Source: Candidatus Nomurabacteria bacterium GW2011_GWE1_32_28 (lineage in GTDB: Bacteria; Patescibacteriota; Minisyncoccia; Phycocordibacterales; UBA9973). From it: a DNA stretch of 64,000 bases. The position numbers were made by a program, and so were the translations under genes. Where the stretch lies: assembly GCA_000989515.1 (NCBI GenBank), contig LBOM01000004.1, forward strand, positions 56,149 through 120,148, in the 5' to 3' direction. The stretch's first letter is position 1. Every line of letters begins with the position of its first letter. Shown piece by piece: positions 14,645-15,988 of the stretch. The notes under the pieces were generated by a model. That model had not been told where the DNA came from. It was given only the letters and a program-made list of their open reading frames with translations, and did not search any database.

Positions 14645-15988
14645 CTAACCCTTTAACTTTAAATAATTTTCTAAAAATTCTTTTTTAAACTCAAAAAATT
14701 TATCATCTAATATAGATTGGCGAATATCATTTACTAGGTGGGTTATAAAATATAAATTATGAATAGAGGCAAGAGTACCTGCTAACATTTCTTTTCCATG
14801 AAAAAGATGTGCTATGTATGCTCGTGTATAATTCTTGCAAGAATAACATCCACAACCTTCATCTATAGGGCCAAAATCATTTCTATATTTTGTATTAGTA
14901 ATACTTATTTTTCCAAATTTTGTATAAATAGTCCCATTCCTTCCTAGACGTGTTGGTAATACACAATCAAAAAGATCAACTCCATTTTCTATTCCCATAA
15001 AGAAATCCTCTGGCTCCCCTATTCCAAGTAAATGACGAGGCTTTTCTTCAGGAAGTATTTCATTCACCCATTTCACAGCAGAAGACATATCTTCTTTTGC
15101 AAAAGATCCACCGATACCAAAACCATCAAAGTATTTTCCGTTTACATTTATTTCTGCAATAATCTTTGCAGATTGTTTTCGTAAAGATTCTTCGCGTCCA
15201 CCTTGTACGATGCCGAAAAGCGCAGGAGAAAATTCTCTTTTTTGTAATGTCTCGTAGGCTGACGAGCCGAGAGGCAGCGCTGAGCGAGCACGCTCAGACA
15301 GCGACCCCAAAGAAGAGAAATTTTCTCCTGCGCTAGAAAGCAGCAACTTCGCATTTTTTAATTTTTGATGTTCAACTAAACACCTTTCCGCCCAACGATG
15401 AGTACGCTCAAGTGCCTCTTCTTGATATTTAATATCTTCAGTCGGGCTTGTACATTCATCAAAAGCAAAAATAATATCAGCACCTAGATTGTGTTGTATT
15501 TGTATAGATTTTTCAGGTGTAATGTAATGTATGCTTCCATCTAAATGAGATTTGAAAGAAACACCATCATGTCCTATTTTAGCTAAACGAGGTGCATCAC
15601 TATCATCAAAACGTTCAGGAATCAATAAAGATGGATCAACTATTTTTGTAATTTTAGAGATATCTTTTCCATAAGCAGCACCTAAAGAAAAAACCTGGAA
15701 ACCACCAGAGTCAGTCATTGTCGGGCCACTCCAATTCATAAATTTACCAATACCTCCAGCATCTCGAACTATCTCATCTCCAGGTTGTAAATATAAATGA
15801 TAAGTATTGCCTAGAACAACTTGTGTACCAGCATCACGCACTTGTTCAGGATTTAAAGATTTTACAGTTGCCTTTGTGCCCACAGCGACAAAAGCCGGAG
15901 TCAATATATCCCCATGAGGCGTCGTGAGTACACCAACTCGCCCTAAACTATTTTTTAATTTTTTCTCAATTTTAAAATCCATAATCAA
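14645..15988 (-). CDS. tgt: queuine tRNA-ribosyltransferase (tRNA-guanine transglycosylase)
   Basis: [36 protein letters not shown], Zn site [17 protein letters not shown]; carries a ~38-codon insertion (see the 15220-15333 repeat). Confidence 0.85.
15220..15333. repeat. 114-bp GC-rich palindromic element inserted in-frame in tgt (RPE/MITE-like)
   Basis: terminal inverted repeats gcgcaggagaaaattctctt / aagagaaattttctcctgcgc flank a GC-rich core with inner hairpin ctgagcg-agca-cgctcag; length is 38 codons, inserted just before the conserved ALFGIVQGG. Confidence 0.5.

Follow-up and report, generated by a model that had tools for sequence, protein, structure and literature searches.

A palindromic insert in the tgt gene of a Nomurabacteria genome

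A 64,000-nt stretch of contig LBOM01000004.1 from Candidatus Nomurabacteria bacterium GW2011_GWE1_32_28 (referred to hereafter as the window) carries tgt, the gene for queuine tRNA-ribosyltransferase, as an intact open reading frame (ORF) of 447 codons on the minus strand (14645–15988; Pfam TGT, E = 1.5e-134). Its product matched the Tgt of Candidatus Nomurabacteria bacterium GW2011_GWE1_32_28 at 100% identity and the solved Zymomonas Tgt structures at E = 6e-92 (phmmer). Within the gene, and in frame with it, lies a GC-rich palindromic element (15219–15334, minus strand), supported by its inverted repeats, its fold z-scores and a covariance-model match. The initial annotation of this DNA had described a GC-rich palindrome of 114 bp that adds exactly 38 codons to tgt and maintains the reading frame. 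The palindrome, its insertion in frame and the intact frame were all recovered; the two figures were not, as the element measures 116 bp and its net excess over the shortest orthologues is 41 codons (66 residues from W to G here, as compared with 25).

The element ends in a perfect 16-nt inverted repeat (AGCGCAGGAGAAAATT / AATTTTCTCCTGCGCT, at 15219–15234 and 15319–15334), which lengthens to about 29/31 nt when one bulge and a few mismatches are tolerated; repeats of about 20 bp had been noted initially. The inner perfect hairpin noted at the same time, CTGAGCG-4 nt-CGCTCAG, was found at 15280–15297, and a second small hairpin lies besides. The GC content of the element is 0.53–0.56 over 100-nt windows, with a peak of 0.68 over 60-nt windows, as against 0.31 for the whole 64 kb. 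Folded as RNA it reached −58.6 kcal/mol (z = −7.0), and 0 of 200 shuffles were as stable. As DNA it folded strongly on either strand (z = −7.2 for the minus strand and −8.2 for the plus strand), no shuffle equalling either value. The covariance model matched at 15226–15327 (minus strand, 97.9 bits, E = 5e-26). There was no second copy in the window, where all other covariance-model scores were below 13 bits. Nor were there other long GC-rich palindromes in it, the remaining inverted repeats being AT-rich terminator-like hairpins. Rfam 15, searched across the whole window, gave no match at the gathering threshold.

When aligned with the solved Zymomonas Tgt, residues 204–243 of the window protein had no counterpart. 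An AlphaFold2 model built on a 46-sequence alignment gave a confident Tgt barrel, with residues 220–249 at pLDDT <50 in a loop between helix 184–217 and strand 254–259 (LFGIVQ); the residue numbers of the model are those of the 445-residue protein P0001, two lower than in the 447-codon ORF. The insert would be translated as part of Tgt, where it probably forms an extra, disordered loop of about 38–41 residues. In (beta/alpha)8 barrels, alpha-to-beta loops lie on the face opposite the catalytic C-terminal strand ends. By the model the insert would be a loop of this kind, on the TIM-barrel face away from catalysis, and Tgt should therefore still work; its function is probably unharmed, the insert being borne as a floppy surface loop.

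Tgt has a second segment of about 30 residues with no counterpart in the Zymomonas protein (residues 105–134, about 15587–15676, minus strand). It too is of low predicted-structure confidence (P0001 residues 94–133), but, unlike the palindrome, its sequence is kept across aligned homologues.

Copies of the element share a Y-shaped core with covarying stems

Scanning metagenomes with the 5′ two-thirds of the core of the element gave at least 126 matches in at least 120 stretches, and at least 127 distinct copies were compiled from Paceibacteria (Nomurabacteria to Kaiserbacteria). In its sense orientation, which is the minus strand here, the window copy consists of a 5′ arm (15306–15334; AGCGCAGGAGAAAATTTCTCTTCTTTGGG), a conserved 56-nt core (15250–15305) and a 3′ arm (15219–15249; CATTACAAAAAAGAGAATTTTCTCCTGCGCT). 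The 5′ arm was delimited by anchored arm extension, and the core by a regular expression and the alignment of 127 copies, as GTCGCTGTCT-N5-TGCT-N5′-AGCGCTGCCTCTCG-N4-CGTC-N4′-CTRCGAGA. For the element type present in the window (type A) it is also written GTCGCTGTCT-N5-TGCT-N5′-AGCGCT(GC/CA)CTCTCG-N4-CGTC-N4′-CTGCGAGA. In hairpin 1 of the core (15277–15302, minus strand) the base, GC.G.CU, is fixed, five pairs covary freely and the loop is TGCT; in the window copy its stem is CTGAGCG/CGCTCAG. In hairpin 2 (15250–15272, minus strand) the TCTC/GAGA stem is fixed and four pairs covary; the loop is CGTC, and a bulge lies on the 3′ side. With invariant bases at the junction, closure by GGGG/CCCC and complementary arms of 15–30 bp, the whole forms a Y-shaped hairpin.

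The window copy is slightly decayed. The closing CCCC of its 3′ arm has become TTAC, and the bulge of hairpin 2, CTG in the consensus, reads CTA (TGC to TAC), which places Tyr where Cys would stand. At its very end (GCGCT) the 3′ arm coincides with the native Ala-Leu codons of ALFGIVQGG, and these bases are mirrored at the start of the 5′ arm; the ALFG codons are kept in all orthologues.

Two ideas about the small hairpins were rejected. A hammerhead or other small ribozyme was suggested by CUGACGA on the plus strand; these bases lie in the covarying stem of hairpin 2, are not conserved and gave no Rfam match. A mimic of the Tgt substrate, serving autoregulation, needs an anticodon-like UGU loop; the loops are the tetranucleotides UGCU and CGUC, and the element occurs in many other genes.

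In alignment A3 (93 sequences) there were 27 invariant columns, unpaired junction bases included, across hosts of 31–60% GC. Over 93 gapless copies, the Y structure (outer stem and two hairpins) was paired in 95% of cells. Hairpin 1 (helix 2) was 99% paired, with five pairs changed on both sides, and hairpin 2 (helices 3 and 4) was 98–100% paired; each variable pair of the two hairpins, including all five of hairpin 1, occurred as three or four Watson–Crick types. Double-sided changes numbered 555 cells, as compared with 155 in shuffles (0 of 500 reached 555) and 66–113 in slid-partner controls, and the covariation score was 0.499 against 0.131. G-U cells made up only about 1% in the small hairpins, and both DNA strands fold equally well. 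Since G-U pairs are scarce and either strand or orientation serves equally, we take the constraint on the stems to lie at the level of DNA, or of both strands, and not of a single RNA.

Strong covariation, and invariant columns that include unpaired bases in hosts of such different composition, are also what a functional structured RNA would leave. Such a module would be a cis-acting site for mRNA stability, termination, processing or protein binding, kept by selection on RNA structure, used in 3′ untranslated regions and tolerated or exploited in coding regions. It need not fully exclude an origin like that of repetitive extragenic palindromic sequences (REPs). The near absence of G-U pairs speaks against it, as RNA helices usually tolerate many. 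So does Rfam, which at the permissive thresholds of E up to 1–10 gave no family-specific match for the window copy or for four other copy-bearing loci. With the evidence on orientation given below, we regard the RNA module as distinctly unlikely.

Copies lie in frame in many genes and between genes

Only 16 of 126 among the metagenome matches listed were in tgt. Elsewhere, the listed matches included in-frame copies in uvrD, tsaD, recG, uvrB, uvrC, fmt, rluD, def and an IleRS-like gene; in all, the element is in frame in at least 10 different genes, and there are intergenic copies as well. UvrD/PcrA-type helicases have a recurrent site before AVLYRANFQSR and a second site, and in TsaD the insertion precedes LPRPML..FSFSGLKT. 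Many further listed matches fell in short ORFs and are probably intergenic copies. Four contigs (L123, L139, L158 and L191) carried two copies each.

Two of the six frames of the element are stop-free, one per strand, the antisense frame reading GVSQADGPRGSA..DSDP. Both encode small, polar, flexible residues rich in Gly, Ser, Pro and Ala. In ORFs of at least 250 amino acids (aa), 25 copies were read in the sense (GSLS) frame, 29 in the antisense (GVSQ) frame and seven in other frames. An in-gene copy would persist only if the frame is kept and free of stops, which would leave one usable frame per strand.

These frames bear on whether the insert reaches the mature protein at all. It could be an intervening sequence (a mini-intron, a segment cut out by RNase III or one resembling an intein) that is lost before or after translation, so that mature Tgt lacks it. 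The long perfect stem would, by our own reasoning, be an RNase III-type substrate, and insertions in rRNA genes are known for these bacteria. However, at tgt the insert was in frame and stop-free in 80 of 81 sequences (79 of 80 loci and the window), and of the 61 copies that lie in long ORFs, 54 are read in one of the two open frames, a pressure that removal from RNA would not exert. At 116 nt the insert is too small for group I or group II introns or for inteins, no ribozyme or intron family matched it, and no protein-splicing features were present. Excision of the insert is thus scarcely credible. The same observations (an insert in frame, stop-free in two of six frames, with neither splicing nor ribozyme features) set it apart from diversity-generating retroelements, inteins and introns.

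The hosts, which comprised Nomurabacteria and Paceibacterota metagenome-assembled genomes (MAGs) and Kaiserbacteria-like contigs, fell into two groups: AT-rich Nomurabacteria-like genomes, with copies in genes, and contigs of 50–60% GC. The LepA of one GC-rich contig (L162) was 85% identical to that of Candidatus Kaiserbacteria. On the GC-rich contigs, 36 of 55 copies lay 0–36 nt after the end of an ORF. The tetranucleotide CTCG stood at both stem ends in 19 of 49 copies from GC-rich hosts, in none of the shifted controls and in 0 of 70 copies from AT-rich hosts. The core pattern had no match in viral contigs, and a phage origin was rejected on this ground.

The position just past ORFs in GC-rich hosts and the orientation of copies downstream of genes there (30 vs 10) are again what an RNA module would predict, and REPs so placed have been proposed to work as RNA elements (PMC3733652). 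Within genes, on the other hand, the two orientations are about equal (25 vs 29).

tgt is a turnover hotspot for several element families

The tgt insertion site (site 1) was compared among relatives by extracting the corresponding segment from the tgt loci of 80 species-representative genomes, all of them Paceibacteria or Nomurabacteria-type MAGs. The 120 closest Tgt proteins, 77–100% identical, differ by 0 to about 75 residues in length between RWAERSLxEHxKL and ALFGIVQGG. In some genomes the site is empty and reads KLGGxQALFG, with 25 residues from W to G, a spacing that we take E. coli Tgt to share. The peptide type of the window, type A, was found in 21 sequences including the window itself. 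Type E (GVSQxDExRGSAxxxxxDSDP) is the reverse complement of type A read in frame. At least seven other insert types (B, C, D, F, G, H and I) occupy the same site, and tandem pairs of elements were present at four loci (L018, L026, L043 and L076). Covariance-model matches on the opposite strand were found at L004, L018, L033, L048 and L076, or five of the 27 strong matches among the 80 loci.

Long inserts of every type fold into an extended outer stem whose branched tip is GC-rich, most with z between −4 and −10. Types C, D, F, H and I recur at other positions in the loci fetched, and several palindromic families therefore share the hotspot. In a neighbour-joining tree of Tgt with the insert masked, insert types and empty sites were interleaved; the nearest neighbours of the window protein carried types B, A, E and C and one empty site, in a tree that is shallow and not to be over-read. 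Site 1 of tgt is clearly a turnover hotspot used by several element families.

This comparison also bears on whether the insert could be an ordinary lineage-specific loop of Tgt, under protein selection, with the DNA palindrome incidental. Many orthologues do share the type-A peptide, and the site is a loop of variable length. The initial annotation had named orthologues that share the segment in ordinary AT-rich codons as the outcome that would tell against a palindromic insertion. What was found is a lineage-specific segment whose peptide is shared but coded by GC-rich palindromic DNA (GC 0.46–0.68 in type A and E inserts, 0.31–0.48 in their loci), other orthologues having its reverse complement, unrelated hairpin inserts or nothing. 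The residues that vary are exactly those coded by the covarying stem bases, and the predicted loop is of low confidence. The same DNA, moreover, occurs in unrelated proteins and in intergenic DNA, and some relatives have it reversed at this very tgt site, where the other strand yields a different peptide. An ordinary protein loop is very improbable, being already contradicted by the copies in other genes and the reverse-strand readings at tgt.

A second tgt hotspot follows the CxCxxC zinc motif (site 2; 14828–14839, minus strand). It is empty in the window and filled in relatives, holding the present element at L018, L032, L123 and L139 and other small hairpins at L009, L013, L045 and L073; L043 has an apparent 5-residue footprint there.

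Some loci showed further stacking. Just upstream of the window element, TTGCTGCTTTCT at 15335–15350 (codons K-L-L-L-S) equals the start of the left arm of type B (LLLSHGSHSNLN..). Type B occupies site 1 at L009, L030 and L076, and L076 and P0002 still carry B and E in tandem (E is A read from the reverse strand). Type B and type A may once have stood in tandem in the window, the core of type B having been lost later. At four other loci (L200, L193, L184 and L172) a type-A element is nested in a larger, different palindrome (agagcatgtttgaaaa ... ttttcaaacatgctct). At three uvrD loci (L090, L141 and L179), type-I-like DNA adjoins the type-A copy, indicating that families stack in tandem at the uvrD hotspot too.

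Arms are specific to sites and the core flips between them

When arms were clustered at 80% identity the clusters followed the insertion site, and none spanned two sites. The 5′ arm of the window copy clustered with arms of this tgt site from four loci (L001, L002, L123 and L183). Site 1 of tgt had at least four arm lineages, and tsaD had one or two. By inspection of the listed arms, the inner 14 nt or so beside GGGG/CCCC appear to be common to sites. In tsaD, blocks of the two arms change jointly: CTACAG is present in both arms at L118 and L134, GAAGG in both at L161, and L097 is a hybrid. In uvrD copies the arms extend into native codons. One tgt arm lineage, AACAGAAGAATCATTCTTTATA, holds the core in sense at L003 and in antisense at L018, L048 and L076. 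The core can therefore flip in place between arms, and a flip that leaves the arms unchanged is a further point against the RNA module.

Quasi-palindrome correction, in which template switching occurs at hairpins, is established from E. coli genetics. By such arm-to-arm copying at the DNA level, arms and small stems would stay complementary, and we infer that template switching at hairpins is what likely maintains the arms. Selection for hairpin formation may also contribute.

Repeated and probably non-autonomous DNA

Taken together, these data make it likely that the tgt segment is one member of a family of palindromic, non-autonomous DNA repeats in Paceibacteria (Parcubacteria, candidate phyla radiation) that behave like REPs, Rickettsia palindromic elements (RPEs) and MITEs (miniature inverted-repeat transposable elements). 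The element is repeated, occupies many insertion sites in both orientations, is restricted in reading frame, covaries in its stems and takes part in the turnover of a hotspot. Its mobility would be provided in trans, by an enzyme recognizing the folded core. Copies would land, or survive, downstream of genes in GC-rich hosts and in permissive protein loops in AT-rich, compact genomes. The initial annotation, which proposed a selfish in-frame element similar to RPEs, is upheld by the lineage-specific occurrence of the segment, its strong folding as RNA and DNA and its place in a low-confidence loop, and by the same DNA being present, in both orientations, in many more genes and between genes of related bacteria. 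Beyond it, the site is a hotspot of several families, the centre of the element rather than its ends is conserved, and the window copy is slightly decayed.

Several observations weigh against this interpretation. No transposase or other mobilizing enzyme was found in fragments totalling about 1.4 Mb, and no parent insertion sequence was found. The sole gene flanked by two copies encodes a methyltransferase; the two inverted copies, 900 bp apart at L112, merely flank it, and it was rejected as an autonomous parent. Because arms cluster by site and never across sites, much of the distribution could be due to old vertical inheritance rather than recent transposition. The copy number per AT-rich genome looks low, with one copy in the 64-kb window and no strong copy outside tgt in 526 kb around tgt from 80 genomes. 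No convincing target-site duplication was seen at in-gene copies: the CTCG direct repeats are absent from them, and the repeat that flanks tgt site 2, TCCRCG, is not in the empty site and may therefore be no true duplication. Finally, the conserved unpaired bases of the core and the orientation bias downstream of genes would fit a functional RNA as well.

In a bolder form of the interpretation, which we think rather unlikely, the element would be no conventional remnant of a transposon but would belong to a new class of structure-recognized mobile DNA in bacteria of the candidate phyla radiation. A nuclease or recombinase of the HUH or resolvase type would recognize the Y-shaped (T-hairpin-like) core as folded DNA, the arms would be regenerated by hairpin-templated synthesis, and the element would home to a few sites in DNA-repair and tRNA-modification genes. 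Hairpin-templated synthesis of the arms would account for near-perfect Watson–Crick pairing without G-U intermediates, for the flip-flop of the core and for the growth of arms into host codons. Homing to few sites would account for the stacking of families at the same codon of tgt, tsaD and uvrD. If the Y-shaped core is the recognition site of an enzyme, this would point to a new mechanism of mobilization.

Comparison with known palindromic repeats

The Rickettsia elements RPE-1 to RPE-8, reportedly described by Ogata and colleagues in 2000, are said to measure about 100–150 bp. The present element resembles RPEs as a hairpin-forming repeat of this size class, at 116 bp and with at least 127 copies, that lies both in intergenic DNA and in frame within housekeeping genes (at least 10) of small genomes. 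RPEs give rise to extra surface peptides, as the present element would, and in both the host genes include those for excision-repair and tRNA-modification enzymes. The likeness is one of behaviour. The hosts are Patescibacteria rather than Alphaproteobacteria, which makes the element at most an analogue. It differs also in its conserved 56-nt centre and variable arms, and in the reuse of one protein site by several families in both orientations.

Bacterial MITEs (Correia/NEMIS, ERIC) are likewise small, non-coding, multi-copy repeats with inverted-repeat ends that are sometimes in frame in genes. MITEs have target-site duplications, and here a CTCG direct repeat flanks 19 of 49 copies in GC-rich hosts. 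The termini of MITEs are conserved, as they are bound by transposase, and the interior is variable. In the present element this is reversed, the centre being conserved and the arms, complementary within a copy, differing between sites, with no common conserved terminal inverted repeats. In-gene copies, moreover, lack the flanking direct repeat, and at tgt site 2 it does not come from the empty site.

REPs are defined as palindromes of 20–40 bp with an unpaired GTAG or CGTC tag at one end; for the CGTC class no dedicated transposase is known (PMC3733652). Within genes, REPs and RPEs are concentrated in uvrA/B/D, recBCD, truB and aminoacyl-tRNA synthetase genes; they also occur shortly downstream of ORFs (Di Nocera et al., 2013; PMC3733652). 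The element agrees with REPs and REPINs in location. It is found a few to tens of bases past ORFs (36 of 55 copies in GC-rich hosts), and its intragenic copies fall in the same kinds of gene (repair, recombination, helicase, tRNA-modification and synthetase genes, here uvrD, uvrB, uvrC, recG, tsaD, tgt and rluD). As in REPs, stems vary between copies yet stay paired. The tag, however, is lacking: the core has no terminal GTAG or CGTC, and CGTC occurs only as the tetraloop of hairpin 2. By inspection, GTAG lies upstream of some Kaiserbacteria copies at a variable and not a fixed distance. The unit differs too: its 56-nt core has two hairpins and is enclosed by a long outer stem.

In Nematomorpha mitochondria, translated genes contain long inverted repeats that are maintained nearly perfect, which implies that, besides constraint on the protein, some process acting on DNA holds the arms identical (PMC6649704). 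The element resembles them in that long inverted repeats are upheld within translated genes. In Nematomorpha, however, both arms code for conserved parts of the protein and there is no dispersed family, whereas here a dispersed element has been added in a loop that looks dispensable.

Among the papers searched, none joined palindromic or in-frame elements with Patescibacteria, Parcubacteria, Nomurabacteria or Kaiserbacteria. The kind of element is thus known (REP, RPE, MITE), while the family, the host phylum and the architecture of conserved centre and variable arms appear to be new. Selfish palindromes in frame are textbook oddities known mainly from Rickettsia, and the genomes of Patescibacteria are among the smallest and most streamlined of free-standing bacteria. 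An unrelated, widespread family in Patescibacteria would mean that the phenomenon recurs in independently reduced genomes. It would explain many lineage-specific insertions in conserved proteins, with consequences for annotation, alignments, phylogenomics and structure prediction, and the element would serve as a marker of recent DNA turnover in uncultured lineages. The copies also offer natural material for asking whether long palindromes are kept perfect in genes by template-switch correction or by selection, and what causes elements to build up at particular loops of repair and tRNA-modification enzymes.

Other features of the window

The gene next to tgt (16027–17709, minus strand) codes for a very Cys-rich protein of 560 aa with many CxxC pairs and no Pfam match. 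Two related GC-rich segments, 76% identical and reaching 0.65–0.72 GC, lie at 42589–42731 and 43089–43266. One forms the C-terminus of a 290-aa ORF (43099–43971, minus strand) and the other lies in a 74-aa ORF, with no Pfam match; the pair may be a duplicated or foreign segment. A diversity-generating retroelement was considered for these spots and rejected, as they do not differ in an adenine-specific manner and the window has no Pfam reverse transcriptase.

At 61640–61752, a stretch of 0.63 GC with several small hairpins stands in a neighbourhood of 0.2–0.3 GC; it had no Rfam match at E up to 1 and may be a small RNA not described so far. A perfect 16-nt inverted repeat with a 10-nt spacer (CAACAGAAGTAACAAC / GTTGTTACTTCTGTTG, 1948–1989), outside ORFs of at least 80 aa, might represent a terminator, or else arms left bare after an element was lost. 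The window also contains a bacterial RNase P RNA of class A at 9771–10125 (111 bits) and a tRNA-Thr(TGT) at 23589–23662.

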